From the NCBI GenBank assembly GCA_963827755.1, contig CAWHCQ010000004.1, positions 32,001 through 96,000 on the forward strand: 64,000 bases of DNA. The letters run 5' to 3'. The notes under the pieces are model-generated. The model was given only the letters and a program-made list of their open reading frames with translations. It was not told the origin of the DNA and did no database searches. Shown here in pieces: positions 1-14,318 of the stretch. Made by a program: the position numbers and the translations under genes. The DNA comes from an uncultured Gammaproteobacteria bacterium (lineage in GTDB: Bacteria; Pseudomonadota; Gammaproteobacteria; UBA9214). Every line of letters begins with the position of its first letter. Positions within the stretch are counted from its first letter, which is position 1.

Positions 1-471
1 CTGTCGGTACAGGGGACTGTCTTCGATCCGGGCTACTGGTATGTGACAACCCAGGAGGCACAATGGGTCGGCTGGACGCTGCAGAAAATGGGTATCAATA
101 ACCTGGACAATATCTATTTCGGATTCGTCAATGGCATCCCGAACCCGGCGATCAATCCTGCCGACTGGATGTCCTTTGCGCTGATCGGCGGAGCGGCAAT
201 CATCGCGCTCTACCACGACGAATTCAAGTTCAAGAAGCCCACCTGGGAGACCGCCATGTGGTCGGTTATCGGCGGATTTTTCATGGGCATCGGTGCGCGA
301 CTTGGACTCGGGTGCAACGTGGGCGCCTTCTTCGTACGGGTCGCCAACGGCGACTGCTCGGGCTGGTTGTTCGGCCTGGGGATGGCGGGCGGGGCCTATC
401 TGGGCGTCAAGTTCTTCAACTGGTGGACCGAGAAAAAGCTTGCCAAGGAAATGGAAGCGTGTGGTTTTTAA
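1..471 (+). CDS. YeeE/YedE (TsuA-like) sulfur-compound transporter, 5'-truncated by window edge
   Basis: Frame open from base 1. Hydrophobic helices and GGFFMGIGARLGLGCNVGAFF, the G-A-R-x-x-x-G-C-N signature of YeeE/YedE. Followed by a TusA-like gene. Confidence 0.88.
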   Translation: MSVQGTVFDPGYWYVTTQEAQWVGWTLQKMGINNLDNIYFGFVNGIPNPAINPADWMSFALIGGAAIIALYHDEFKFKKPTWETAMWSVIGGFFMGIGARLGLGCNVGAFFVRVANGDCSGWLFGLGMAGGAYLGVKFFNWWTEKKLAKEMEACGF

Positions 472-500
472 CTTAGTCAGTACATAACGGGGTATCTAAA

Positions 501-752
501 ATGGGTATGAAATTCGAGAAGACCGACGATGGGCGTTATCGCCTGAACGTCAACGGGTATGTGTGTCCGCATCCGCAGATATACACAAAAAAGGCCCTGG
601 AGAAGCTGGCCTCGGGCGAAGTCCTGGAGCTGATTTTTGACAATCCCTCATCTGGCGAATCCATTCAGCAAATGGTAGAGAATGACGGCAACGAGATGCT
701 GGACCAGAAAAAAGAGAGTGGCCAGTTTATTTGGCAAATTCAGAAAGTATAG
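501..752 (+). CDS. TusA/SirA/YeeD-family sulfur carrier
   Basis: 83 aa, L-N-V-x-G-x-x-CPHP (CPxP) motif, DNPSS, typical TusA size. Confidence 0.9.
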   Translation: MGMKFEKTDDGRYRLNVNGYVCPHPQIYTKKALEKLASGEVLELIFDNPSSGESIQQMVENDGNEMLDQKKESGQFIWQIQKV

Positions 753-860
753 TTCCGTGGAGTTATCGCAGACTGTGTGATTGCCGGGTGGCGCCTGTCG
801 TCGTTGAATGAGCAAACGATGAGAGTCATCCGATGGATAAGCGGATATAGAGGGGGCGTT

Positions 861-1055
861 ATGAAAAGTGATCTTTGGTTTGTATTTGCAGTGACTGCCG
901 GGTTTCTGGGTTTTCTCATGGGCTACGGCGTGCCGCCGATGCAGGAGGTCGGTATCGCTGCCGTCGGTGGACACGGCGGCCCGGCGGTCGAGAGCGCCGC
1001 CGAGACCGACGCCGCGATGGAACAGTTCAGGGAACTGCAGAAGCTCACTGAATGA
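861..1055 (+). CDS. small single-TM membrane protein (64 aa), unknown function
   Basis: AGAGGGGG RBS before ATG 861. N-terminal TM ending GFLMGY, acidic tail. Lies within the operon. Confidence 0.7.
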   Translation: MKSDLWFVFAVTAGFLGFLMGYGVPPMQEVGIAAVGGHGGPAVESAAETDAAMEQFRELQKLTE

Positions 1056-1152
1056 ATGCTGCGTGGGCCAGAGGTTCCGGGCAGCGTGTGCCCGGGCCGT
1101 GAAAGATGGCCCCGCTTGTATTGATGGTATAGCGAAACAAGAGGACAAAAAA

Positions 1153-1368
1153 TTGTCGAATATATATCTTCGAACAGCGATAACAGGCGGCGCGTTTATC
1201 GTGGCCTTTCTGCTGGGTTATAGCATCTCGGCGCGCACCGGGGTGGAACCCGGGTATTTTTCAGCGGTGGAGGTTGGCTCCTACGGCGCGCCGGAGGGGG
1301 AGAGTAAAATCGAAGGCCTGTCGGATCAGGATGCGGACTACTACAAGTCCCTGATGAACGAAGAATAG
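1153..1368 (+). CDS. small single-TM membrane protein (71 aa), probable paralogue of 861..1055
   Basis: GAGGA RBS before TTG 1153. TM ending AFLLGY, acidic tail. Confidence 0.68.
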   Translation: MSNIYLRTAITGGAFIVAFLLGYSISARTGVEPGYFSAVEVGSYGAPEGESKIEGLSDQDADYYKSLMNEE

Positions 1369-1524
1369 TCCAGTGCGATTGGCCAAAAGAGAAAAGCCTG
1401 TCGCGCGGATCGGTAGGGCTTGTTCGGTTGACGCCATGTCAGGAATCCAGCACAACGGCGCTTCGGGAAAGCCCGTTGCGCCGGTCATGCGATGGTCGAG
1501 ATGTAGCAGACCAGGCAAACCGCT

Positions 1525-2952
1525 ATGGATGTTCTGAATACGCAGTTCAATTACGCTGTGATCCTCGGGGGCGGGCCCTCGGGCCTGGCCGCGGGGCATG
1601 TGCTGTCTGAATCCGGGTGCAATGTCCTTGTCATCGAGCGCCAGGCGCGCGTCGGCGGTCTCGCCAAGACCCTCGAGCACCATGGCTTCAGATTCGACCT
1701 GGGCGGTCACCGCTTTATCACCGGCAACAAACAGCTGGAGAGCCTGGTAAGGGAAATTCTCGGGGGTGAACTGTTGACGGTCGAGCGTTCGAGCAAGATC
1801 CTGCTCGATGGCAAGCTCTATGACTACCCCATAACTGTTCGCAATGCCCTTTCCCGGCTCGGTTTGCGCAAGTCGATCAGGATAGGTGCGGACTATTTAC
1901 TGGAACAGATGCGCAAACGCTTTAGAAAGACCCCGATCATCTCGCTGGAAGACTGGGTCGTGCAGCACTTCGGGCGTTCCCTGTTCGAGTTGTTTTTCAA
2001 GGAATACAGCGAGAAGGTCTGGGGTATACCCTGTAACAGAATTGCCAGGGAGTGGGTCGCCGCGAGGATAAAGGGCCTGTCCCTCGGGGTGGCCATCAAG
2101 GCAGCATTCTCGCGCACCGGGTCGCGACGCCCGCGGACACTGGCGAATCAGTTTCTGTATCCGCCGCTTGGTATCGGACAGATCTGCGACGGCCTCAAAG
2201 CGCGGATAGACGAGATCGGTCAGGTAATGACGGATACGCGTGTGATCGGCATCAACCATGCGGATAACCGGATCCAGAGCATCATCGTAAAGGATGCCGG
2301 CGGCGTTCAGGGGTATACGGGCTACGAATTCATCTCCAGCATTCCATTGACGCTGGTCGTCCAGCTGCTTAATCCACAACCGCCCGCAGAGATCCTCCAG
2401 GCGGCGGCCAGCCTTCGATTCAGGGATCTCATCGTGGTGACCGTAATGATCAACCGGGAACATGTCACCGACCAAACCTGGATATACGTACCTGACTCGA
2501 CGGTACCCTTCGGCCGAATCCACGAACCGAAGAACTGGAGCGCCCGAATGGCGCCCGAGGGCAAGACTCACCTTGTGGTCGAGTATTTCTGCTTCAGGGA
2601 AGATGCTATCTGGGCGGAGACAGATACGATGCTTGCACAGCGCACAGTCCGTGAACTCGGCAAGCTCGGGATAATCGAAGTGGAAGAGGTTTACGACAGT
2701 GTAGTAATGAAGATACCAAACGCCTATCCGCTGTTCGAGGTGGACTATATCGAGAAACAGAAATGTATTGTTGATTATCTCGAGCGGTTCACGAACCTTG
2801 AGCTGGTCGGGCGGGGAGGCCAGTTCGAATACTACAATACCGATCACGCCATGGAGTCCGGTATCGCTGCGGCGGAGGCCATTCTTGCGCGAATCGATGG
2901 CACGGTCGCCGTGCGAACACCGGTGCTGGCAAGAGGCCGGGTATGCCCATGA
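1525..2952 (+). CDS. FAD-dependent oxidoreductase (protoporphyrinogen oxidase / UDP-galactopyranose mutase-like family)
   Basis: VILGGGPSGLAAG Rossmann motif, ERQARVGGLA, FDLGGHRF, C-terminal GRGGQFEYYNTDHAM. Confidence 0.85.
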   Translation: MDVLNTQFNYAVILGGGPSGLAAGHVLSESGCNVLVIERQARVGGLAKTLEHHGFRFDLGGHRFITGNKQLESLVREILGGELLTVERSSKILLDGKLYDYPITVRNALSRLGLRKSIRIGADYLLEQMRKRFRKTPIISLEDWVVQHFGRSLFELFFKEYSEKVWGIPCNRIAREWVAARIKGLSLGVAIKAAFSRTGSRRPRTLANQFLYPPLGIGQICDGLKARIDEIGQVMTDTRVIGINHADNRIQSIIVKDAGGVQGYTGYEFISSIPLTLVVQLLNPQPPAEILQAAASLRFRDLIVVTVMINREHVTDQTWIYVPDSTVPFGRIHEPKNWSARMAPEGKTHLVVEYFCFREDAIWAETDTMLAQRTVRELGKLGIIEVEEVYDSVVMKIPNAYPLFEVDYIEKQKCIVDYLERFTNLELVGRGGQFEYYNTDHAMESGIAAAEAILARIDGTVAVRTPVLARGRVCP

Positions 2953-4439
2953 AGTGTGTGCTGATACATCCCGCGTGGTCCCCGGAGGAAATCTTCCCTG
3001 CCGGGACGGTCACGTCGCAGATCAACTACTGGCAGCCACTCGGCACCCTCTACGTGGGCGCCGCGATGCTCGAGGCGGGGCATGAGGTTGAGTTTTTGAA
3101 TGGTGCATTCATGACCCATGAGGCGATCATGGCGCGAGTTGCGGAGATCCGCCCGGAGTTCGCCGGCCTTTACTCGACGACCTTTGGCTTTTCGAAGGCG
3201 GTCCATACGGCGAACGCGCTCAAACAGTTCGACAGGGACATGTTCGTGTGTGTTGGCGGCCCCTATCCCATGGCCATGAAGTATCAGTGTCTCGAGGGGG
3301 AGGGGGCGAACTTCGATGCGGTGGTCACCGGCGAGGCCGAATTGGCGATCGTTGAGCTGCTCGAACGACTGGCGGGGGATATGGGTCTCACAGGTCTGGC
3401 GGGGGTGGATTTCAGGGTGGGCGGCGAGATTATCCGCAACCCGCCCCGCGCGCTGCTCGAAGACCTCGATTCACTGCCATTCCCGGCCCGGCACCTGCTG
3501 GGCGAGAAGGCGCACTACATCCCGCCGCCGGGTCAGTACCGGCGCAAGCCGGTCACGATCCTGATTACGTCGCGGGGCTGCGACAGACGCTGCATTTTCT
3601 GTTTTCAGGTCGACAAAGAGCGCCAGTATGGCAGCCGCGGAGTCCGGTTCCGCAGCGTCGAGAATGTCCTGCAGGAGATCGAGCTGTGCCTCGCCCAGGG
3701 CTATCGGGAGATCAAGTTCATCGACGACACGTTTGCCGCCAACTACGACCGGGCCATGGATATCTGCCGGGAGATAAAGCGACGCAAGCTCGATTTCACC
3801 TGGTTTGCCTCGGCCTGCGTGAACCAGGTCGACCCGCCGCTGCTGCAGGCCATGAAAGACGCCGGCTGCTGGGCGATCCTGTTCGGGGCGGATAGCGGCG
3901 TGCAGAAGACACTCAATTCACTGCGCAAGGCGACCACGCTCGAGATGATCCGGCGCGATGTCGCGTGGGCGAAACAGGCCGGTATCCGTGTGAGTACCCC
4001 GTTTATCTTCGGTGCGCCCGGCGAGACCTTCGAGGACGGACTGAAGACGATCGAATTCGCCGTGGAGCTCGATGCCGATCTGGCCAACTTCCATTCGCTC
4101 ACGCCGTTTCCGGGTACGCCGTTGCACGACAACCTGGAGAAATACGGGAGCGTCTCGGAGAATCTCTCGGATCGTACCTATCAGTCAGCTGCGTTCGTGC
4201 CCTATACGATGACGCGCGATGAAATCCTCAACTTGCGCCAGATTGCGTTCCGGCGTTTTTACACCCGGCCGAAGTTCCTGTTGCGCCGGTTACTGCAGAT
4301 GCGTTCCTGGAATGACCTGCGGGTCAATTTTCAGGGTCTGCGAAGCCTCTACCAGCTTTGGGCCACGCGTAATTTATTTCACGGCTGGAAAGGCAAGGCG
4401 GGAACGCCTGAAATCGCCGGGCGGAGCGCTGAGGAATGA
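2949..4439 (+). CDS. cobalamin-binding (class B) radical SAM protein
   Basis: N-terminal B12 domain (PLGTLY...VGGPYP...VVTGEAE), TSRGCDRRCIFC CxxxCxxC. ATGA overlap with the upstream stop. Confidence 0.9.
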   Translation: MKCVLIHPAWSPEEIFPAGTVTSQINYWQPLGTLYVGAAMLEAGHEVEFLNGAFMTHEAIMARVAEIRPEFAGLYSTTFGFSKAVHTANALKQFDRDMFVCVGGPYPMAMKYQCLEGEGANFDAVVTGEAELAIVELLERLAGDMGLTGLAGVDFRVGGEIIRNPPRALLEDLDSLPFPARHLLGEKAHYIPPPGQYRRKPVTILITSRGCDRRCIFCFQVDKERQYGSRGVRFRSVENVLQEIELCLAQGYREIKFIDDTFAANYDRAMDICREIKRRKLDFTWFASACVNQVDPPLLQAMKDAGCWAILFGADSGVQKTLNSLRKATTLEMIRRDVAWAKQAGIRVSTPFIFGAPGETFEDGLKTIEFAVELDADLANFHSLTPFPGTPLHDNLEKYGSVSENLSDRTYQSAAFVPYTMTRDEILNLRQIAFRRFYTRPKFLLRRLLQMRSWNDLRVNFQGLRSLYQLWATRNLFHGWKGKAGTPEIAGRSAEE

Positions 4440-4490
4440 CGCTGCGGCGACTTGATTGTTCTCATCCATGAAAACAGGAGACCTGATACG

Positions 4491-4781
4491 ATGAACATTC
4501 TATTTGAGATATCATCGGGCGATGCGTCCAGTGTACTGGTGCCGCTGGCCCGGGCCTGCGATCGCAACGGGGTGACATGGAGCTGCTTTTTTACCGGCGA
4601 CGGCGTCAAGACCCTCGCGCGTGACGATGTCCGTGCAACAATCGCGGGGGCAGCGAGCGCGGCGGCCTGTGAAGTTTCCTGGGAACGCTACATGGGAGAC
4701 CAGCCCTGTCCCGTGGAGATAGGCAGCCAGACCAACAACAGCGCCATGGTCGGTGATGTCGACAAAATCGTCAGCCTTTAG
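4491..4781 (+). CDS. DsrE-like sulfur-relay protein
   Basis: CAGGAG RBS. FFTGDGV motif, AACEVSW Cys at the DsrE active-site position, GSQ, C-terminal DKIVSL. Confidence 0.75.
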   Translation: MNILFEISSGDASSVLVPLARACDRNGVTWSCFFTGDGVKTLARDDVRATIAGAASAAACEVSWERYMGDQPCPVEIGSQTNNSAMVGDVDKIVSL

Positions 4782-4793
4782 GAGGGCATTCAA

Positions 4794-5066
4794 ATGGCAC
4801 AGAATAAATCAATCCTCATGCTTGGACGTCGGGACCCGACAGAGACCATGCGCGTTGCTGCGGGTCTGACGATTTTCAATCATACGCCGAGCATAGTGTT
4901 TCTGGTGCCGGTACCGGATACGCCCGAGAATGCCGAGATGGCGGAGTTGCTGGAGTTCTCGGATATCGAATCGAAGACCACGGTAGAAAATCAATCGCTT
5001 CCGCATATCGGGGCAGATGCCCTTGCTGCCGCCATCCTCGCAGCAGACGAGGTCATCAACATCTAG
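4794..5066 (+). CDS. DsrF-like protein
   Basis: AGGAGG RBS. ExxRxAxGL motif, C-terminal ADEVINI, no Cys. Confidence 0.65.
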   Translation: MAQNKSILMLGRRDPTETMRVAAGLTIFNHTPSIVFLVPVPDTPENAEMAELLEFSDIESKTTVENQSLPHIGADALAAAILAADEVINI

Positions 5067-5092
5067 TCACAACAGCAAGAGGAGGCACCGGC

Positions 5093-5275
5093 ATGAAGAT
5101 CGTTGTTCTGAACACAGGAATGTTTCCCGAGAAAGGTGCGCTTGAGGACGCACTTGCGCAGCTTGGGTCTGACCACGAGGTTTCCCGGCATGATGCGGAG
5201 GGCGAGCACGCTGATGACGACTGGGACCGCACCGTGCAGGCAATCGTGTCCGCCGATCGGGTCATAACCCTCTGA
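5093..5275 (+). CDS. short DsrH/TusB-like protein
   Basis: GGAGG RBS. 60 aa ending WDRTVQAIVSADRVITL, resembling the DsrH C-terminus. Confidence 0.55.
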   Translation: MKIVVLNTGMFPEKGALEDALAQLGSDHEVSRHDAEGEHADDDWDRTVQAIVSADRVITL

Positions 5276-5439
5276 CGGACAACAGCCGCGTCCACGCGGG
5301 CACATCCGCCGGTCGCCCCTGCACGCCGAGGGAGAGAATCAGTTTGTACGAATCGCGCGTTGAGCCCCTGTGGTTTCCATTCCACCGGCCACGGCACAGC
5401 ACCACCATGTCATAACAATCGAATAAACAGGAGTGAAGC

Positions 5440-5886
5440 ATGAAGACACAACGTATTCTCGCACCGGTTGATGGTTCAAAATTGTGTCATTTCGCTCTCG
5501 ACGAGGCAGACAGGCTGGCTTCGCAGAGCGGTGGCGAATTGACCCTGATGTTCGTTCATGAGCCGGCAACGGTCCATCTCATGGATGATGATTTTCCGGA
5601 GCCTGCGGAGACGACAGAGTTATTGGCGGCGGCGGCGAAAAATATCATGGAAAAATGTGCTGGTGCGTGCATCACGCCCGAGAAACACCGGCACATTGTC
5701 ATCGAGCGCGGCTCACCGGCACAGACCATTATCGAACACTCGGGGGAGTACGACCTGATCGTCATGTCAACGCACGGGCACTCGGGAATGAAACACTTCC
5801 ATCTTGGCTCGGTGGCGGAGCGTGTGGTCCGCGGTTCGCACTGCGACGTGCTTGTGGTAAAACAGCCAAGTGACAGAAGCGATTGA
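5440..5886 (+). CDS. universal stress protein (UspA family)
   Basis: ILAPVDGS, DLIVMSTHG, LGSVAERVVR...VLVV. Confidence 0.93.
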   Translation: MKTQRILAPVDGSKLCHFALDEADRLASQSGGELTLMFVHEPATVHLMDDDFPEPAETTELLAAAAKNIMEKCAGACITPEKHRHIVIERGSPAQTIIEHSGEYDLIVMSTHGHSGMKHFHLGSVAERVVRGSHCDVLVVKQPSDRSD

Positions 5887-5982
5887 GCTGACTGGCAGCG
5901 ATCCGCTGTGCCTGAATGCGCGGGCAACAGGAAAATGATGTGCATCGCGGGCGAATGCAGGACTGTATATCGATAGCCGCGC

Positions 5983-6987
5983 ATGAATGAACTCGTCTCG
6001 ATCATCATCCCCGTTCGAAACGGAGAAGCTACAATCGCACGTTGCCTGGAAGCGGCACTCGCATCGCGCTATGAGCGCTTCGAGGTGATCGTCGTCAATG
6101 ATGGCTCGGACGATCGTTCAGCCGAGATAATAAAGACCTTCCCATGCACCCTCGTTCAGCTGCCCGGGCACTCCGGGACGTCGACTGCACGCAATACCGG
6201 CGCTTGCCACAGTCACGGGGATATCCTGTTTTTCACCGATGCGGACTGCCTGTTGAACGAGGATACCCTCGCGATTGCCGTCGCCACACTGACGGCTGCG
6301 GGCCGGGACGTGGTACTGGGCGGAACCTATACGGCGCAGCCGGCTGACGATCGTTTCTTCAGTGCATTCCAGTCGGTCTTCGTCAATCACGCCGAAAGCC
6401 GTGATCGCGACAACCCCGACTACATTGCGGCACATGCCATGGTGCTGTACGCAGATACATTCGAGAAAAGCGGAGGGTTTGTCGAAGACTTTCTGCCTAT
6501 ACTCGAGGATGTCGACTTCAGTCACCGGTTGCGAAGTAGCGGGTATCGACTCGTTATGAATCCCGGGATTCAGGTCCGGCACCTGTTCGACTATTCCCTT
6601 CTGGGGTCGGCCTGCAATGGTTTCAGAAAATCCAAATACTGGACTATCTATTCCATACATCACAGGGATTTGCTTGCGGACTCCGGCACGGCATCGCGGG
6701 CATTGAAGCTTGATGTGATAGCCCTGTTCGGCAGTGTCCTTGCAGCAGCGCTCGTCCTGGGTACCGGGAATGCGTGGTTCTCCGTTCTTATCGCAGTGCT
6801 GATGGCGCTGAACATCACTGTAAATCGCGAGCTACTGCAGGGGTTCTACCGTGCACGCGGGATGGCTTTTGCGCTCGCGGCTTCGGCCTACTACCTCCTG
6901 GTCTACCCCCTGGTGGTCGGCGCGGGTGGCCTCGCCGGGTTGCTGGGCTACCGCCGGTACGCCGGGTTACTGGAGGCTGCCGGCTGA
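5983..6987 (+). CDS. GT2 glycosyltransferase with C-terminal TM helices
   Basis: VSIIIPVRNGE, VVNDGSDD, ARNTG, FTDAD, EDVD, hydrophobic C-terminus. Confidence 0.92.
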   Translation: MNELVSIIIPVRNGEATIARCLEAALASRYERFEVIVVNDGSDDRSAEIIKTFPCTLVQLPGHSGTSTARNTGACHSHGDILFFTDADCLLNEDTLAIAVATLTAAGRDVVLGGTYTAQPADDRFFSAFQSVFVNHAESRDRDNPDYIAAHAMVLYADTFEKSGGFVEDFLPILEDVDFSHRLRSSGYRLVMNPGIQVRHLFDYSLLGSACNGFRKSKYWTIYSIHHRDLLADSGTASRALKLDVIALFGSVLAAALVLGTGNAWFSVLIAVLMALNITVNRELLQGFYRARGMAFALAASAYYLLVYPLVVGAGGLAGLLGYRRYAGLLEAAG

Positions 6988-8075
6988 TGTCCTCGATGGT
7001 GCGGCATGCAGGCTCGATCTTCTGGAAACGGCGGCCCGTTCATCTGACGTTTTTTCTGACCCGCAAGTGTAATGCCCACTGTCCGTTCTGTTTTTACCTG
7101 AAGAGTCCGGATAACCCGCAGACCGGGGCAGCGGAGTTGTCTCTCGATGAGATTGAGCGCATCTCCCGGTCCCTGGGCAGGTTGTTGTGGCTTGCCTTCT
7201 CGGGCGGCGAGGTCTATCTGAGGAAGGACCTGGTCGAGATAAGCAAGCTTTTCTACGATCGAAACAGGCCCGCCGTCATGCTGTACCCGAGCAACGGCAT
7301 GCTGCCCGATCTGATCCGGGATCAAACGGAGCGGATTGCAGCGCACTGCCGCAGCAGTGTCGTCGTCGTCAAGCTCTCGCTCGATGGTATCGGCACTGAC
7401 CATGACACGCTACGCAATACCCCAGGCAATTTTGACAGGACCATGCAGACCTATGCACACCTTCAAGGCCTCCTCGATGTCTATCCTAATTTCGAACTCG
7501 GCTTTAATACCGTGCTCACTGCGCAGAACCAGGACAAGATCGAAGCGCTCATCGATTATGTCGCTGGCCTGGACAGGCGCACAACGCACACCATCTCGAT
7601 GGTGCGCGGGAACCTGCTGGACAACGGATTCAAGCAGGTCGATCCTGAGAATTACCGCCGCGCCGCAGAAATACTGGCAACCCGCCTCCGGGAGCGGACC
7701 TCCGGCATTAACCGGTTCAGGGGAGCGCGTCTCAAGGCGGCGCAGGACGTACTGCAGCGCCGGTTTATTCACCAGACACTGACCGGACAGGACCGGTCAC
7801 TGCCCTGTTACGCGGGGAAGCTCAACCTGGTGCTGACCGAATCGGGCGAGGTGTACCCCTGCGAGATTCTTCCGCAGAGTCTCGGCAACGTGCGGGACCA
7901 TGATTACGACATCATGCAGGTGACCCGCACCGGGAAGGCGCGCGAGGTCCTGCATTCAATATCCGCCGGTAACCCGCACTGCCGGACCTGCACGCACGAA
8001 TGCAACTACATCACGAATATCCTGTTCAACCCCGCGATGTATCCCGCATTGATGAAGGAGTATCTTCGACTATAA
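6987..8075 (+). CDS. radical SAM protein with SPASM/twitch domain
   Basis: TGATG coupling to the GT2 gene. CNAHCPFC, SGGE, SLDG, then CYAG...GEVYPCE...CRTCTHEC. Confidence 0.9.
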   Translation: MSSMVRHAGSIFWKRRPVHLTFFLTRKCNAHCPFCFYLKSPDNPQTGAAELSLDEIERISRSLGRLLWLAFSGGEVYLRKDLVEISKLFYDRNRPAVMLYPSNGMLPDLIRDQTERIAAHCRSSVVVVKLSLDGIGTDHDTLRNTPGNFDRTMQTYAHLQGLLDVYPNFELGFNTVLTAQNQDKIEALIDYVAGLDRRTTHTISMVRGNLLDNGFKQVDPENYRRAAEILATRLRERTSGINRFRGARLKAAQDVLQRRFIHQTLTGQDRSLPCYAGKLNLVLTESGEVYPCEILPQSLGNVRDHDYDIMQVTRTGKAREVLHSISAGNPHCRTCTHECNYITNILFNPAMYPALMKEYLRL

Positions 8076-8181
8076 CGGTACAGCAGCGACCCGCTTGCCC
8101 GTAAAAGAACGTGCCCGGGCAGGACCGGCACCCGGGCGGGAATGACGGATTTCCGGTCGTTCGGGTTCAGGCAACAGGAAG

Positions 8182-9447
8182 CTAGCCCCGGCTATCCAGC
8201 AATTTGTCACGCACGAGGCCGATATGCAGGCGCAGGCTGTAGAGTTCATCCGTATAGGACAGGGGTACGTTGACCTTGCGCACTTCTTCTTCCAGCTTGT
8301 CGAGTTTTTGCAGCAGTGATTCCAGGGCCTCGGCGGAATGTGTTGCGGGGTTTTCGGTATCCAGTGCCTGCAGTTCACGGTACCAGCGATAGATCTTCTT
8401 GCGTACCTGCCAGCGGTAGGTCGGCGGCGTGATTTTGGCCAGCGGCAGCAACAGCGTCAGCAGCGGCACCAGCATGATCTTGAGACGGTCGATCAGGCTG
8501 GCCGTCCAGAAGGGCAGGTAGCGCTGCAGGAAGGGTGGTCCGTGTTTGTAGAAGCGGCGCGCGTCATCGTTCAGCGGAAATTCCAGGTTCTTGCTGTTGG
8601 GAAAGACGCCGGGCTTCTCGAACAGGCCGCTGGTCTCGTGCACGCGGCTGGCGGCCTGTAACAGCAGGCTGACCAGTGCGGGGTGGAAATCCTTGTCTGC
8701 GACGAGGTTCGCAGTCGCCGCCAGCAGAATGGTGTCGTGCGCGGGAATGTTTGCCTGCAGGTCGATGACGCCCTCGGACAGGGTGACGGCAGAGAGAAAG
8801 TGGTGCATCCGCGTGTAGGCGGTGGCGCGTGCAAAGGACATCAGGCGAATATCCCGCCGCTGCAGCAGCTGCTGCACCAGCGGTGCGGCGGGTGCGGCGA
8901 CCAGGAAGAGGGCGTCGATACGGCCCTGTAACAGGGCCTGCGCGGCGCCGGCGCCGCCGATGGGCTGAATATTGTCATTCCCGGCATCGATGAAATTGTC
9001 CGCCAGCAGCTGGCTGGCGATGGCGTGGGTGCCGCTGCCGCGCTCACCGATGGCGACACGCATGTCCTGCAGTTCGCCCAGCCGGGTCAGCGTTTGCTCG
9101 CCGCGGTAAAAAACCCACAGGGGCTCGTAATACAGGCTGCCCAGGCTGGTGAGGGTGCCGCCATCCGCTTGAGTGCCGGTACCGCCCTGCACGAATGCGA
9201 GGTCAACCTCGCCGCGCTGCAGTAATTCGAGATTCTCGATAGAGCCCGCCGTATTGCGGATTAGCAGCTCGACACCGTTCTGCGCCAGCCATTCCCGGTA
9301 GCGCCGGGCGAACAGGTAGTACGCGCCATCCGTGTGACCGGTAGCGATGGTCAGGGTGCGCGGTGGTGCGGGATTCACGAACTGCCAGGCGATGAAGAAG
9401 CCGATGAGCGTGAGCAGCAAGGTTATGCCTATTGTCAGCAGACGCAT
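8182..9447 (-). CDS. TAXI-family TRAP solute-binding protein with N- and C-terminal membrane segments
   Basis: TIATG..GAY, TAGSIENL, DLAFVQGG, YEPLWVF, GSGT, RYLPFW. Confidence 0.85.
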   Translation of the reverse strand: MRLLTIGITLLLTLIGFFIAWQFVNPAPPRTLTIATGHTDGAYYLFARRYREWLAQNGVELLIRNTAGSIENLELLQRGEVDLAFVQGGTGTQADGGTLTSLGSLYYEPLWVFYRGEQTLTRLGELQDMRVAIGERGSGTHAIASQLLADNFIDAGNDNIQPIGGAGAAQALLQGRIDALFLVAAPAAPLVQQLLQRRDIRLMSFARATAYTRMHHFLSAVTLSEGVIDLQANIPAHDTILLAATANLVADKDFHPALVSLLLQAASRVHETSGLFEKPGVFPNSKNLEFPLNDDARRFYKHGPPFLQRYLPFWTASLIDRLKIMLVPLLTLLLPLAKITPPTYRWQVRKKIYRWYRELQALDTENPATHSAEALESLLQKLDKLEEEVRKVNVPLSYTDELYSLRLHIGLVRDKLLDSRG

Positions 9448-9736
9448 GGGGGTTGCCTTTTGTTCAGGTGGTTAATACCGGCCGGCTTATTCTACACGCA
9501 TACAGGGAAACCAGACCCGGTTCTGACAGATTGCCGGGGAGTTGCGTCGTGACAGGCGAGGCAACAGGATCTTGCGTTTCCCGCCGGGCAGCCGGGTTGG
9601 TATTGTGGTGTATATTTTCACTCGACACACGGGTTTGCACGTTTGCCGGGGCGATCGGGCCGCCTTTTTTACAGGAAACGGGGTAAAATAAGCCAGGGTC
9701 TCGTCAAAATAATGATGCAGGACGGGGGGATACATC

Positions 9737-11551
9737 ATGCAGGTACGCTTCTGGGGCACGCGCGGCTCACTGGCAAAGCCGGGGCCGGGGACTGTCCGTT
9801 ACGGCGGCAATACCTCCTGTGTCGAGGTGCGCTCGGCCTCGGGGACGCTGGTCGTCATCGATTGCGGAACCGGGGCCCATGGTCTCGGCGAGGCGCTGAT
9901 GGCGGAGCCGGTTCAGCCCGTGCACGGTCACCTGTTGATCAGCCACACGCACTGGGATCACATCCAGGGAATCCCTTTCTTCGCGCCGCTGTTCGCGCCC
10001 GAGAACGAGTGGGACATCTACGGGCCAAACAGCCTGAGCCAGTCGATCCAGGAGACGCTCTCGGGACAAATGCAGTACACCTACTTCCCGGTGACCCTCG
10101 ATGCGCTCGATGCGAAGATCAGGTATCACGACCTGGTAGAGGGTGAGTTCAGGGTCGGGGACATCACCATCCGCTCCCACTACCTGAATCACCCGGCCCT
10201 GACGCTCGGCTACCGGCTTGAAGCCGACGGTCATTCGGTGGTCTATTCCTGCGATCACGAACCTTATGCCCGCTCGCCGTCGACCGACAGTGGCGGACTC
10301 GGCGACCAGGACCTGCAGCATGCAAATTTTTTACGCGGTGCTGATCTTGTTATTCACGATGCGCAGTACACCGAAGCGGAATATCCCGGCAAGATCGGCT
10401 GGGGTCACAGCACGGCCGAGTATGCGGTCGATATCTGTAATGCCGTTGGCGTAAAGCAACTGGCGTTGACCCACCATGACCCGATGCGGGATGACGACGC
10501 CGTCGACCGGATTGTCGCTGCCATGAGAAGCCGCCAGGGTTCGTCCGGGCAGTCGCTGTACGTATTTGCGGCCTCGGAGGGCGAGACGGTTGACCTGGGC
10601 ACGGGCATCGATTCAGAGGTTACGCACAGCAGAACAGCCTTCTCTGCCGTGACAAAGGTTAAACCGGCGATGTCGGATTTCCTGATAGTGCTGGGTGCCA
10701 CCGACGCGCACACGGCCGGGGTGATCAAGAGTGCCGCGGCCGCCGAGAATGTGCGGCTCATTGCCGCGGCGAGTACCGAAGCCGCGCTGCAAGCCATAGC
10801 CACGGAGCGACCTTCTCTGGTGATTGTGGACGCGCAGGCGGCGGGCGATGATGCGCTTGCAATAGGCCGCAGGCTGAAAGAAGCAGCGACGCCGGGCACT
10901 GCGCAGCCGGATCTCGTGGTTATCGCCGACAGGGACCACCCGGCCCCGGCACTGGCCGGGTTCGATCCCGTCTGGATTAGCAGGCCCTTTTCCCGGGAGT
11001 ATGCACGCACGCGCATACGCGCGTGGATTCTGCGCACGACCTGTCGATGGGTGCGCGCACAGATTCCGCCAGGCGAAGAGGCGCGGCTGGCGGCGCTCGA
11101 TGAACTGCACATACTGGATAGCGAGCCGGAAGAACGTTTCGATCGTATCGTACGAATCGCTGCGGAAGTCTTCGATGTCCCGATCGCCCTGGTCAGTCTT
11201 GTCGACCGCGAGCGCCAGTGGTTCAAATCCTGTTTCGGCCTGGACGTGAAAGAGACCTCGCGTGACATGGCGTTCTGTGCGCATGCAATCCTCAAGGACG
11301 AGGTGATGATTGTCCCTGACGCCCTGCTGGACCCGCGGTTTGCCGACAACCCGCTGGTGACCGGCGAGCCGCATGTTCGCTTCTATGCCGGTTGTCCGCT
11401 GAAACTGCCCGACGGGAACTTTATGGGCACCCTCTGCCTGATCGATACGCGGCCCCGCCAGATCGACGACAGGAAAGTCAGGCTGCTGCAGGACCTCGGG
11501 AAACTTGCCGAGCTGGAGCTTGCGAGAGGGCCCGGCCCGGCCGGGTCATGA
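9737..11551 (+). CDS. MBL-fold hydrolase (phosphodiesterase-like) fused to receiver-like and GAF domains
   Basis: FWGTRGS..YGGNTSC, HTHWDH, HDAQY, WGHS. C-terminal GAF (EERFDRI...FCAHAI...RFYAG...GTLCLID). Confidence 0.85.
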   Translation: MQVRFWGTRGSLAKPGPGTVRYGGNTSCVEVRSASGTLVVIDCGTGAHGLGEALMAEPVQPVHGHLLISHTHWDHIQGIPFFAPLFAPENEWDIYGPNSLSQSIQETLSGQMQYTYFPVTLDALDAKIRYHDLVEGEFRVGDITIRSHYLNHPALTLGYRLEADGHSVVYSCDHEPYARSPSTDSGGLGDQDLQHANFLRGADLVIHDAQYTEAEYPGKIGWGHSTAEYAVDICNAVGVKQLALTHHDPMRDDDAVDRIVAAMRSRQGSSGQSLYVFAASEGETVDLGTGIDSEVTHSRTAFSAVTKVKPAMSDFLIVLGATDAHTAGVIKSAAAAENVRLIAAASTEAALQAIATERPSLVIVDAQAAGDDALAIGRRLKEAATPGTAQPDLVVIADRDHPAPALAGFDPVWISRPFSREYARTRIRAWILRTTCRWVRAQIPPGEEARLAALDELHILDSEPEERFDRIVRIAAEVFDVPIALVSLVDRERQWFKSCFGLDVKETSRDMAFCAHAILKDEVMIVPDALLDPRFADNPLVTGEPHVRFYAGCPLKLPDGNFMGTLCLIDTRPRQIDDRKVRLLQDLGKLAELELARGPGPAGS

Positions 11552-11596
11552 AGACCCGGGTGAAGAAGGTGGCGATAGCCGGAGGGCTGCAAGCTT

Positions 11597-14318
11597 TTAC
11601 TGCACCAGTGTCAGGCCCGGTTTTGCAGAAGACAGCAATTCATCAATCTCGTCGACAGGCAGCGGCCGGCTGAACAAATAACCCTGCATGACATCACAGC
11701 CATGTTCGGTCAGGAAGATGCGCTGTTCATCCGTCTCGACACCCTCGGCAACAATGGTCAGGTTGAGCGTGTGGCCGAGGGCGAGAATCGCCTCGACTAT
11801 GGCTGCATCGTTGTTGTCTGCCGGAATGTCGCGCACAAAGGAACGGTCGATTTTCAGGGTATTGATCGGCAGACGTTTCAGGTAACTCATCGATGAATAG
11901 CCGGTGCCGAAGTCATCGATGGCCAGCTGCACGCCGAGATTGCGCAGTGCGCGCAGGTTACCGATAGTGGTGGCGGCCTGGCTCATGATGCAGCTCTCGG
12001 TGATCTCCAGTTCGAGATAGCGCGGCTCAAGGCCGGTGGCATCCAGGACTTCACCGACTGCCTGTACCAGTCTGTCAGTGATCTGCTGGCCTGACACATT
12101 CACTGCAACGGGAATCCTGATCCCCGTTGCATCCTGCCATGCCCTGTTTTGCTCACAGGCGGTCCGCATCACCCACTCACCCAACGGCTCGATCAGCCCG
12201 GATTCCTCCGCTACCGGTATGAACATGTTCGGCGGTACCAGTCCATGCTGCGGATGATGCCAGCGCAGCAGCGCCTCCAGTCCCACGATCCGGTCAGTCT
12301 CGAGCGACACCTGTGGCTGGTAGTGCACCTCAAATTCATCTCTTTCCAGGGCCTTGCGCAAATCTGTTTCCAGGGCCAGCCGTTCGTCGGCGGCGACGGT
12401 CATGTCTGCCAGGTAGAACTGGAACTTGTTACCGCCGTCTTTCTTCGCATGGAACATGGCAATGTCAGCATGCTTCATGAGGGTGGTGACATCATTGCCG
12501 TCCTGCGGGTACATGCTGATGCCGATACTGGCACCGAGGAATACTTCCCGGCCGGACACCTCGAACGGCCTGGCAAGGGCATCCAGGATCCGCTGCGCGA
12601 CTTCCGGCACGCTGTCCTGTGTATCCATGTCCTCGAGAATAATTGTAAACTCATCGCCGCCGAGGCGTGCAACGGTGTCATCCTCGCGTGCAGCTCAGCA
12701 GCAGGCGTTTGGCAACCTGCTGCAGCAGGTCGTCGCCGGCCGGGTGGCCCAGCGTGTCATTGATTTTCTTGAACCCGTCCAGGTCCATGAACAGCAACGC
12801 CAGCTGGCGCCGGGCACGGCGTTGATGCTGCAGGGCATGTGCGAGGCGGTCGCCGAACAGCAACCGGTTGGGCAGGTCGGTGAGCGCATCATGATGCGCC
12901 AGGTGGTCGAGTTTTTCCTGCGTGAGATGGCGCTCGGTAATATCGAGAATGATCGCTACAAATACCTGCGCGGTGCCCGGCCCGGCGAGTTGCAGGTTGA
13001 CCTCGACCGGGTAATGGGAGCCATCCTTGCGTCTGTGTACCGCCTCAAACCGCAGGCGCCGGGTGGTGCCGTTCAGCAGGGGTTCGATAATCCCGATAAA
13101 TGACTCCCGGGTATGCTCCGGTTTGATATCCACGGGGGTCAATTGCAGCAGTTCCTCCATGGAGTAGCCGAGATTGTCACGCGCCCCCTGGTTGACGTTG
13201 ACAAATTTCAGTGTCTGCGTATCGAACATGTAGATCTCGTTGAGCGAATGCTCGAGGATCTCCCCAAGGCTGTTGGCCTTGTCCTCGTGATGCTGGTCAA
13301 GCAGTCGCCGGGTCTGCCTGCGCTCGTTGAGGCTTGCGGCAAATAACAGGGTGAAAAGCGTTGTGACCGCCATGAACAGCTGCAACAGCAGCAGCGATTC
13401 ATTCATGTCGGTACGCATGAAGGGCCCGCTGCCGCCGATTGTCCCCCAGACTGCACTTGCCGCGACCACGGTCAGGCAGATAGTGGCACCGTGTTTGCCG
13501 AAACGCATGGCGGCCCAGGCGAGCGGGGTTATAGGCAGGAAAGCCAGCGGGACATGATTGATAGCCAGCCCCGAGTTGCGTCCGAATACCAGTTGCGCGA
13601 TCAGCAGTGTGCACATCAGCAGCGCTGCCGCTTCAAGCGCGCGTATTACGGACCAGTTTTTTTCAGGCAGCTGTTTCCACGCCAGCAGTAGCGGCGCAAT
13701 CATAAGAACGCCTCCGCTATCACCCAGCCACCAGGTAAGCCAGACGGAGTTATAGAGTGATTTTGCGATCAGTCCTGCTTCCAGCAGGGTGACGGTGCCG
13801 ATGGTTGCACTGATTAATGTTGCCAGCATCCCGCCACCAGCGATCAGGATCAGCACCCCGCGCATGGTATCCAGCGGGTTCCGGGTCCTGGCCAGGGATT
13901 GCACCAGCAGTGCCCCTGCGATGGCTGCCAGGGTATTGCCTGTTGCAATACCCAGACATGCGCTGACGGGCATGCTGGCCGTGATATTCACAATAAATGC
14001 GCCGGCCGTAATGGCGGGCCAGAGACGGATGCCGAAGATCAGCAGGGCTGCCAGGGCGAGGCCGCTGGGCGGCCACACGGCGGTGACGCTGCTGTGCACC
14101 ATGGCCAGCTGCAGGCCCAGTCTGGCTGACACCACGTAGAGAACGATAATGCCCAGGCCAACCAGAGTCAGCCGGGTCAGTTGCTGTGCGTCCATTCGAG
14201 TATGCAGCGGGTGTGTGGCCATGGCGTCGATTTCACAAAATGAGCGAATTTGAGGGACAACCTCACATTCCTGTTGCCTGAACCATGAAATCGGCCGCAG
14301 GCTGTTGATCTTGAACAT
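11597..14318 (-). CDS. MASE1-PAS-GGDEF-EAL diguanylate cyclase/phosphodiesterase, one frameshift near 12685
   Basis: MASE1 TMs (VWPPSG, WWLGD), PAS, HDALTDLPNR, DLDGFK. RLGGDEF (GGDEF at 12647-12661) is in the frame of the downstream EALLRW/DDFGTGYSS ORF. Start codon uncertain. Confidence 0.88.

Follow-up and report, generated by a model that had tools for sequence, protein, structure and literature searches.

A conserved operon joining a YeeE–TusA–DsrEFH-type sulfur relay to a predicted envelope glycosylation module in dsrB-bearing bacteria

A 64,000-nucleotide stretch of the genome of an uncultured gammaproteobacterium (G000:C4:32001-96000, hereafter the window; G000 is the genome itself, with an assembly that is 91.8% complete) opens at positions 1-8075 with 12 co-oriented genes on the + strand. 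These genes encode proteins of sulfur import and persulfide relay next to a flavoenzyme, two radical S-adenosylmethionine (SAM) enzymes and a glycosyltransferase, which raises the question of why a sulfur relay and a set of tailoring enzymes should be encoded in one unit. A first interpretation of this region, made from the letters alone (the sequence-only reading), had proposed a dedicated line of uptake, relay and tailoring that makes a sulfur-containing glycoconjugate, lipid or cofactor, or its selenium or arsenic-thio counterpart. The open reading frame (ORF) listing and scans against Pfam and NCBIfam confirmed the 12 genes and the family calls of that reading, and its interpretation is partly supported by the analysis presented here. 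Positions 1-8075 hold most of a conserved operon, about 14 genes long, in which two modules are joined. The reading that we tentatively prefer, and hold to fall somewhat short of probable, is that an envelope glycosylation module has been attached to a line of sulfur acquisition and relay that feeds the Dsr system.

The unit is truncated by the start of the window. Upstream of base 1, where the rest of the operon had been expected, the same strand carries the remainder of yeeE (complete gene G000:C4:30981-32471, 496 aa), a 618-aa glycosyltransferase of the GT-C type (PMT_2) and a tandem rhodanese of 350 aa that bears a signal peptide. The other end is marked by a convergent gene (8182-9447) and a palindromic hairpin between the two (Table 1). 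A scan for promoters and terminators gave 7 sites compared with 8.2 in shuffled sequences, i.e. no excess, and the hairpin is thus supported by its position alone. Two overlaps between neighboring genes that had been pointed out before are indeed present: the flavoenzyme gene and that of the B12-binding-domain radical SAM enzyme (B12-rSAM) share an ATGA start/stop overlap at 2949-2952, and the genes of the GT2 glycosyltransferase and the second radical SAM enzyme, which has a SPASM/twitch-type C-terminal domain, share a TGATG overlap at 6985-6989. Judging from these overlaps, each pair is likely to be translationally coupled. Contigs of a metatranscriptome (X20) contain pieces 90-98% identical to parts of the flavoenzyme, B12-rSAM, universal stress protein (Usp) and SPASM genes. 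They are no proof of transcription, since the contigs come from relatives and the RNA library may contain DNA, and stretches left uncovered carry no information.

The same gene set is found in many other genomes. A profile of the B12-rSAM retrieved 387 relatives from a one-genome-per-species collection, and the best 80 loci were analyzed; their genes were counted with hidden Markov models (HMMs) built on clustered ORFs, and 32 of the 80 loci have full 10-kb flanks. Throughout the 80 loci, the B12-rSAM is at least 61% identical. The loci are labeled as Gammaproteobacteria (Ectothiorhodospiraceae, Chromatiales and Acidiferrobacterales), Beta- and Alphaproteobacteria, Nitrospirota (Nitrospiria and Thermodesulfovibrionia), Rokubacteria and one Deferribacteres bin. 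Because the gene set recurs around B12-rSAM orthologues in 80 public loci of several phyla, it is more than a chance assembly. The co-occurrence of enzymes and relay genes anticipated by the sequence-only reading is clear in the loci with full flanks, where yeeE is present in 32 of 32 and the gene of the DsrE-like protein in 29 of 32.

The order of the genes also bears on whether the two modules belong together. Most commonly, a trio of small genes (F-like, E-like and H-like, after the subunits of DsrEFH) is followed by GT-C, yeeE, tusA, one or more small membrane proteins, in some loci Usp, the flavoenzyme and the B12-rSAM; SPASM and GT2 then lie on the opposite strand, with the rhodanese after them. 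In the lineage of the window (7 loci), all genes are on one strand and the trio is located between B12-rSAM and GT2. The position of Usp in Nitrospirota is between the membrane protein and the flavoenzyme. One could suppose that two unrelated operons, one for the relay and one for envelope glycosylation, merely became neighbors and were inherited together without a shared function, given that most loci have GT2 and SPASM on the opposite strand, that 13 to 14 of the 32 full-flank loci lack them within 10 kb, and that many genomes contain the relay alone. Such mere adjacency is argued against by the two different gene orders, which interleave both modules across at least four phyla, as well as by the start/stop overlaps and the presence of yeeE in every full-flank locus, and we consider it highly improbable.

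The call of a DsrEFH-like trio was the part of the sequence-only reading with no sequence-profile support; predicted folds and a predicted heterotrimer now speak for it. None of the three small ORFs has a Pfam match, even at E=10, and hhalign comparisons of the F-like and H-like proteins with the E-like protein were not significant (probabilities 1.4% and 6.2%). The AlphaFold2 (AF2) model of the E-like protein has a predicted local distance difference test score (pLDDT) of 95, and its 13 best Foldseek matches in the PDB are all chains of YchN, TusBCD or DsrEFH (TM-score 0.67-0.83). This protein contains a single invariant cysteine (residue 60 of the product; 33 sequences). Its Nitrospirota orthologue scores above the cut-off of PF02635 (24.9 vs 22.7), a domain that roughly half of the 120 best database relatives also carry. 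The model of the F-like protein (pLDDT 93) finds YchN, a DsrE/DsrF-like protein, TusD and DsrE among its top six Foldseek matches, in a list that mixes in other Rossmann-like folds and is less exclusive than that of the E-like protein. The H-like protein can be aligned to a family of 56-aa proteins (MKILHILNDGP...DRVISW). Across the related loci, iterated HMMs joined each ORF of the trio to a wider family of small proteins, to whose common forms the proteins of the window are just 19-35% identical.

As a heterotrimer, the three proteins reached a prediction score of 0.75, compared with 0.10 for the best control, with at least 98% of contacts agreeing between runs and a partner pLDDT of at least 81. 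Of the solved complexes, 116 of 157 attain that mark, as do 2 of 215 mismatched pairs. Since structures of DsrEFH and TusBCD have been solved, the pass may reflect likeness only. On the basis of these models, the E-like and F-like ORFs have predicted DsrE-family folds, and the trio is predicted to assemble.

The other relay genes are more readily assigned. The complete YeeE matches PF04143 (134.5 bits, 7.8e-39) and is below every NCBIfam cut-off (YedE/FdhT, 138 vs 350; TsuA, 87.6 vs 400); its Cys76, Cys144 and Cys445 are conserved in 94-98% of 51 orthologues. TusA scores 69.3 bits on PF01206 (cut-off 28.6), and its sole cysteine, Cys22, is located within a CPHP motif. The tandem rhodanese has a CQTGTRS active-site loop with an invariant active-site cysteine. 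A variant form of the locus was seen in five cases (L042, L047, L075, L077 and L028, at about 7000-8600), with a shorter YeeE (about 358 aa) and without the small membrane protein; the TusA-like protein of these loci lacks the N-terminal CPxP, has two cysteines at its end and scores 23.1 bits on PF01206, below the cut-off.

Together, these genes fit a known kind of relay, the YTD cluster, of which the relay half of the operon would be a new divergent member. The YTD cluster comprises a yeeE-tusA-dsrEFH type II relay that was characterized in vitro in 2026, with formation of the DsrEFH type II complex and transfer of sulfur from TusA to DsrE (Cys67) and on to DsrC (PMC13293266). The type II set is present in 985 genomes of 20 phyla, and its subtype 1 occurs mostly in Nitrospirota (57%), followed by Pseudomonadota (21%) (PMC13293266). 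YTD proteins have been detected in the proteomes of sulfur disproportionators (PMC9751629, PMC13490349). The operon shares with this cluster a YeeE-family gene, a TusA with the CPxP cysteine, a DsrE-like protein of about 100 aa with one conserved cysteine, two small partner proteins predicted to trimerize with it, and occurrence in dsrAB-bearing genomes; the taxa of its carriers agree with those of subtype 1. It differs in that its relay genes do not form one block but alternate with those of the flavoenzyme, two radical SAM enzymes, GT2, GT-C, Usp, rhodanese and small Gly/Tyr-rich membrane proteins. The divergence of the trio noted above is a further difference, as is the DsrH-like subunit of just 56-60 aa.

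The claim that no characterized pathway has this gene set therefore holds for the set as a whole in the literature searched, but not for its relay half, which is the YTD cluster (PMC13293266). In the texts searched of PMC13293266, PMC9751629 and PMC13490349, the terms "radical SAM" and "glycosyltransferase" do not occur, and literature searches for YTD in combination with radical SAM enzymes or glycosyltransferases returned nothing relevant. As far as these searches reach, the union of relay and enzymes is unpublished. The new part is thus the fusion of the relay with a UDP-galactopyranose mutase (UGM)-like flavoenzyme, two radical SAM enzymes, GT2, GT-C and small Gly/Tyr-rich membrane proteins.

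The sequence-only reading had also held that, within the window, the cluster is not dsr. This is true of the window, but not of the genomes that carry the cluster. Among 51 carrier genomes (those of 50 of the 80 loci and the genome of the window itself), dsrB is above cut-off in 48, compared with 0 of 14 controls. The genome of the window has a complete dsrA and a dsrB that is truncated by the contig end (G000:C1:2-1760), as well as five matches to the DsrC/TusE family. The association was also seen in 401 evenly sampled Nitrospirota genomes, in which overlaps were counted by hand and neither relatedness nor incomplete bins were corrected for. B12-rSAM was found in 86 of these genomes, dsrB in 205 and a match to the E-like protein in 142. 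Genomes with B12-rSAM have dsrB in 79 of 86 cases (126 of 315 for the others) and an E-like match, likewise, in 79 of 86 (63 of 315 for the others), although about 11 of the latter 79 are lower-tier matches by score and could be located elsewhere than in the cluster. Conversely, 63 of the 142 E-like-positive genomes have the relay without the enzymes. By these overlaps, the enzyme module is nested inside relay and Dsr: the enzymes are found almost exclusively together with the relay and the relay almost exclusively together with Dsr, with the relay often lacking the enzymes. An argument for a biosynthetic role that would have been drawn from carriers labeled "Nitrospira", expected to be Dsr-free, was dropped, as the genomes concerned (G018 and G048) have dsrB.

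Some carriers contain a second relay. DsrE/TusD of type I (TIGR03012) is above cut-off in 23 of the 51 carrier genomes, and in 20 of these the gene follows dsrB by 18-79 nt. The type I DsrEFH system with rhd-tusA of purple sulfur bacteria resembles the operon in having a rhodanese, TusA, a trimer of DsrE fold and the same DsrC logic. It differs in the placement of its dsrE next to dsrB in these 20 genomes, where the trio of the cluster is an additional, divergent set, i.e. an extra relay beside the canonical DsrEFH. No type I dsrE was seen in the assembly of the window's own genome; as dsrB runs off contig C1, this absence of type I dsrEFH may be an assembly gap.

Sulfur need not have been the element concerned, and the sequence-only reading had allowed for selenium or an arsenic-thio compound. 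In NCBIfam, YeeE and TusA are best matched by the selenium-linked families YedE/FdhT and YedF, and GT2 has a weak match to an arsenosugar-associated family. All of these scores are far under their cut-offs: that for YedE/FdhT was given above, YedF reaches 51.7 vs 79, and the GT2 match, the sole test made for arsenic, 86 bits vs 182. selD is above cut-off in 28 of the 51 carriers, fewer than dsrB; none was found in the genome of the window or in G001-G009, carriers whose B12-rSAM loci are the closest. As selD-free carriers exist, selenium is disfavored as the common function; the arsenic variant found no support in its one test. We regard a line that handles either element in place of sulfur as extremely improbable.

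What the enzymes of the operon act on is suggested by their relatives. The flavoenzyme belongs to an uncharacterized family, PRK07208.1-4 (NF005548, 436 bits vs a cut-off of 389). Its best solved relatives are UGMs of the eukaryotic type (PDB 3ute and 4dsg), matched over the full length with E-values of 6e-21 to 3e-18. In an alignment with the UGM of A. fumigatus, the FAD motif, the GGH loop, an Arg, a Trp/Tyr and C-terminal Tyr/Asn positions coincide; we take the Arg, Tyr and Asn positions to be those by which UGM binds the UDP-sugar, with Arg and Tyr at the diphosphate. The protein differs from UGM in its membership of PRK07208.1-4 and in scoring far under the equivalog cut-off (TIGR00031, 55.6 vs 303.75). 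Its Cys170 is conserved in 96% of 67 orthologues.

By its domains, the B12-rSAM is assigned to class B of the radical SAM enzymes (PF02310, 57.7 bits; PF04055, 78.3 bits). Its CX3CX2C motif (C213/C217/C220) is invariant, and five further cysteines (5, 116, 249, 292 and 309) are kept in 91-99% of 79 sequences. The best named families are far under their cut-offs (HpnJ, TIGR03471, 186.3 vs 577.6; BchE, 148 vs 481). The best PDB match is AprD4, and the score on the family of ApyD, an enzyme of ribosomally made peptides that are modified after translation (RiPPs), is 132 bits. AprD4 and HpnJ, the nearest relatives, presumably both act on sugars. HpnI, HpnK and HpnJ act in the synthesis of bacteriohopanepolyol, and this branch resembles the operon in combining a GT2 with a B12-domain radical SAM enzyme, the latter being the best-scoring named family. 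The resemblance does not extend further: HpnJ is far below its cut-off, HpnI scores 19 vs 310 bits, and the cluster contains neither a deacetylase nor hopanoid genes. At one locus (L019, 15709-18800), two more B12-radical SAM paralogues lie downstream of the cluster.

The SPASM enzyme scores 41.3 bits on PF04055 and 23.5 bits on PF13186 (cut-off 21.5). Its CX3CX2C motif and Cys121, Cys274, Cys292, Cys335 and Cys339 are conserved in 98-100% of 47 sequences. A full SPASM domain has a seven-cysteine pattern; as only four C-terminal cysteines and Cys121 are conserved here, the enzyme looks more twitch-like, with one auxiliary cluster. Its only solved relatives are SkfB (the best, E 1.8e-7) and the sugar-acid decarboxylase BlsE. 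Neither this enzyme nor the B12-rSAM reaches the cut-off of a known sulfur-inserting radical SAM family (MiaB/RimO, 37 vs 251; twitch family, 35 vs 170).

The two glycosyltransferases form a familiar pair. GT2 combines a DAD motif with three hydrophobic segments at its C terminus. The membrane segments of GT-C number about 13; it has PMT_2 in 11 of 11 orthologues and an acidic first loop in which R-x-x-D-D-N (R88, D91 and N93) is invariant; it has no NCBIfam family, and neither single-sequence nor profile searches found a solved relative. A membrane GT2 combined with a multi-span GT-C of the PMT_2 clan is the arrangement of two-step polyprenyl-phosphate glycosylation (ArnC/ArnT, GtrB/GtrC and Ppm1/Pmt), from which the cluster differs in having no flippase gene and a GT-C without an NCBIfam or solved match. 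Cys21, Cys55 and Cys89 of GT2 are conserved in 98-100% of 41 orthologues. In 16 of the 80 loci, from Nitrospirota (e.g. L032, 287-2400, and L049, 66-1900), one or two genes that resemble GT9 heptosyltransferases, by a motif identified by eye, lie upstream of the trio.

The small membrane proteins encoded directly behind tusA make up a single family, in which an N-terminal anchor (…GFL.GYS…) is followed by a Gly/Tyr-rich tail, and have no Pfam or NCBIfam family. The first has one hydrophobic segment (residues 6-24), and the second contains TGVEPGYF...GSYG...DYYKSL. Proteobacteria have two such paralogues, ending in YY(K/R)xL, and the single Nitrospirota version contains as many as about ten (A)GGYG(AP) repeats; L051 combines both features. 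At two loci (L033, 6798-7919, and L054, 3573-4679), one protein unites the anchor and a GGYG stretch with a tandem rhodanese (373 and 368 aa, respectively). Because of these fusions, and because the rhodanese of the window has a signal peptide, the tails are probably located in the periplasm. We presume a likeness to the Gly/Tyr-rich sulfur globule proteins, on which a literature search gave nothing usable.

Small proteins next to radical SAM enzymes could also be substrates. The two enzymes might cross-link or methylate the Gly/Tyr-rich proteins in the manner of RiPPs, with the glycosyltransferases glycosylating the same proteins. The proteins adjoin the enzymes in 59 of the 80 loci and have GGYG repeats or conserved motifs, peptide maturation is a frequent role of SPASM enzymes, with SkfB the best solved relative here, and the ApyD score of the B12-rSAM points in the same direction. 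The probable periplasmic location of the tails speaks against such maturation, as neither radical SAM enzyme has a signal or membrane segment. Moreover, 6 of the 32 full-flank loci contain the flavoenzyme and B12-rSAM and no small protein, the Pfam scans revealed no leader-recognition domain, and the UGM-like flavoenzyme points to a sugar as substrate. We therefore find peptide maturation improbable.

A coherent mechanism can be outlined for the preferred reading, an envelope glycosylation module on a sulfur-acquisition line. In the first module, sulfur would pass from the periplasmic tandem rhodanese through the YeeE-family channel to TusA and the DsrEFH type II-like trimer. In the second, the UGM-like flavoenzyme, the B12-rSAM and the SPASM/twitch enzyme would act on a nucleotide sugar and probably bring it into a form with a five-membered ring; the membrane GT2 would load it onto polyprenyl phosphate, and GT-C would transfer it at the periplasmic side. 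The likeness to UGM, the relatives of the B12-rSAM and the membrane segments of GT2 and GT-C suggest these steps. The small membrane-anchored Gly/Tyr-rich proteins are the likeliest acceptors. Once decorated, they may serve, together with the rhodanese, in the capture or delivery of sulfur substrates at the entrance of YeeE, from which imported sulfane sulfur would pass to the Dsr system. The sugar substrate, its acceptor, the direction of sulfur flow and the role in sulfur capture are all what we infer from the gene content.

Several observations weigh against this interpretation. GT2 and SPASM are missing from the 10-kb flanks of more than a third of the full-flank loci, as noted above. No small multi-span flippase gene of the GtrA or ArnE/F type is present among the ORFs of the unit, to which this search was limited. 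Tyrosine, the sole hydroxyl residue in many of the Gly-Tyr repeat tails, is an unusual glycosylation site. The co-occurrence counts include shared ancestry that was not corrected for. Finally, the 20 carriers with dsrE behind dsrB are 19 genomes labeled Proteobacteria and one unclassified genome, and they include G001, G002, G004 and G009, which are closest to the window by their B12-rSAM loci. As the type I set already provides for the loading of DsrC in these genomes, the second relay suggests a second acceptor.

This last point is the strongest for the idea, already held by the sequence-only reading, that the relay serves the enzymes. In that case, YeeE, TusA and the type II trimer would supply sulfur to the tailoring enzymes, a radical SAM enzyme would make a thio-sugar (furanose or carbocyclic), and GT2 and GT-C would export it to the envelope. 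The enzyme module is almost never found without the relay (yeeE in all full-flank loci and an E-like match in 79 of the 86 Nitrospirota genomes), and the five extra conserved cysteines in each radical SAM enzyme could hold an auxiliary cluster or accept a persulfide. There is precedent for the chemistry in albomycin thiofuranose synthesis, where the radical SAM enzyme AbmM, which has an auxiliary cluster, replaces the ring oxygen of a furanose by sulfur, with its Fe-S cluster as donor (PMC12691670). A sulfur-bearing furanose on a polyprenyl-phosphate carrier is also precedented, by methylthio-xylofuranose, which MtxS places on decaprenyl phosphate and MtxT then passes to mycobacterial lipoarabinomannan (PMC8780516).

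The albomycin pathway is not known to have a persulfide relay, and the sulfur of methylthio-xylofuranose derives from methylthioadenosine and not from such a relay. Set against the proposal of a dedicated supply is the lack of family-level homology between the radical SAM enzymes of the operon and known sulfur-inserting ones. Restriction to genomes with dsrB would be unexpected for a purely biosynthetic envelope sugar, and 63 of the 142 E-like-positive Nitrospirota genomes have the relay without the enzymes. In addition, the demonstrated acceptor of the relay family is DsrC (PMC13293266). A relay dedicated to thio-sugar synthesis thus seems to us unlikely, while deserving serious consideration.

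The two ideas can be combined. A sulfur-bearing five-membered-ring sugar, attached to the Gly/Tyr-rich proteins at the mouth of YeeE, could act as an extracytoplasmic sulfur carrier that binds zero-valent or polysulfide sulfur and hands it to import and Dsr, with the second DsrEFH-type relay charging it and receiving from it; we offer both the carrier and this cycle as doubtful suggestions. To our knowledge, an extracytoplasmic carrier for sulfur of this kind has long been postulated and not identified. In Dsr bacteria, the capture of sulfur substrates at the envelope and the route of sulfane sulfur to DsrC are just partly known. A relay that is hard-wired to these enzymes in several lineages of proteobacteria and, among the Nitrospirota sampled, in about a fifth (86 of 401) is a testable candidate, either for a surface component of sulfur acquisition or for a new pathway to a sulfur-containing sugar. 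The operon also gives a biological context to an uncharacterized and highly conserved family of B12-radical SAM enzymes.

Table 1. Features of the operon in the window, with the number of B12-rSAM loci in which each gene was counted (the count for the small membrane proteins is given once; GT-C and rhodanese lie upstream of base 1)
Feature	Positions	Strand	Basis	Loci (of 80)	Full-flank loci (of 32)
Tandem rhodanese				32	15
GT-C				53	27
yeeE/yedE-family sulfur transporter gene, 3' part	1-471	+	PF04143; last 156 codons	65	32
TusA-family sulfur carrier	501-752	+	PF01206	64	26
Small single-pass membrane protein 1, 64 aa	861-1055	+	hydrophobic segment, no family match	59	26
Small single-pass membrane protein 2, 71 aa, TTG start, paralogue	1153-1368	+	family alignment
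FAD enzyme, family PRK07208.1-4, UDP-galactopyranose-mutase-like	1525-2952	+	NF005548	73	30
B12-binding-domain radical SAM enzyme	2949-4439	+	PF02310 + PF04055
DsrE type II-like subunit (E-like), 96 aa	4491-4781	+	predicted fold, invariant Cys	53	29
DsrF-like subunit (F-like), 90 aa, without Cys	4794-5066	+	predicted fold	37	19
Short DsrH-like subunit (H-like), 60 aa	5093-5275	+	family alignment, predicted trimer	54	29
Universal stress protein (Usp)	5440-5886	+	PF00582, 102.5 bits	42	20
Membrane-anchored GT2 glycosyltransferase	5983-6987	+	PF00535, 104.6 bits	43	18
Radical SAM enzyme, SPASM/twitch-type C-terminal domain	6987-8075	+	PF04055 + PF13186	48	19
G+C-rich palindromic hairpin	8113-8137	.	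terminator-like; between operon end and convergent gene 8182-9447

Further genes were observed around the operon. A gene at G000:C4:26851-27417 (L001, 9851-10417), which lies 486 nt upstream of that of the rhodanese, encodes a Tll0287-like protein (PF11845); the protein has a signal of the lipoprotein type and two cysteines three residues apart (145 and 148) and is present in the three closest loci (L004, L005 and L014). A two-component system lies upstream on the same strand (L001, 6839-9600; G000:C4:23839-26600), consisting of a LuxR-type response regulator and a histidine kinase in which PAS is combined with a phosphonate-binding-like domain on the periplasmic side. In Acidiferrobacterales loci, a PAS-LuxR regulator is found immediately 5' of the F-E-H trio. 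On the other side, the flank at 8182-12628 of the window is not conserved with the cluster; it encodes an NMT1-like periplasmic binding protein on the minus strand, a protein with a metallo-beta-lactamase fold and a GAF domain and, on the minus strand, a partial GGDEF plus EAL protein. Contigs at least 99% identical to positions 1-8075 occur in three metagenome runs labeled as sediment or marine sediment (X1-X3; 17 of 65, 32 of 224 and 110 of 647 pieces, respectively).

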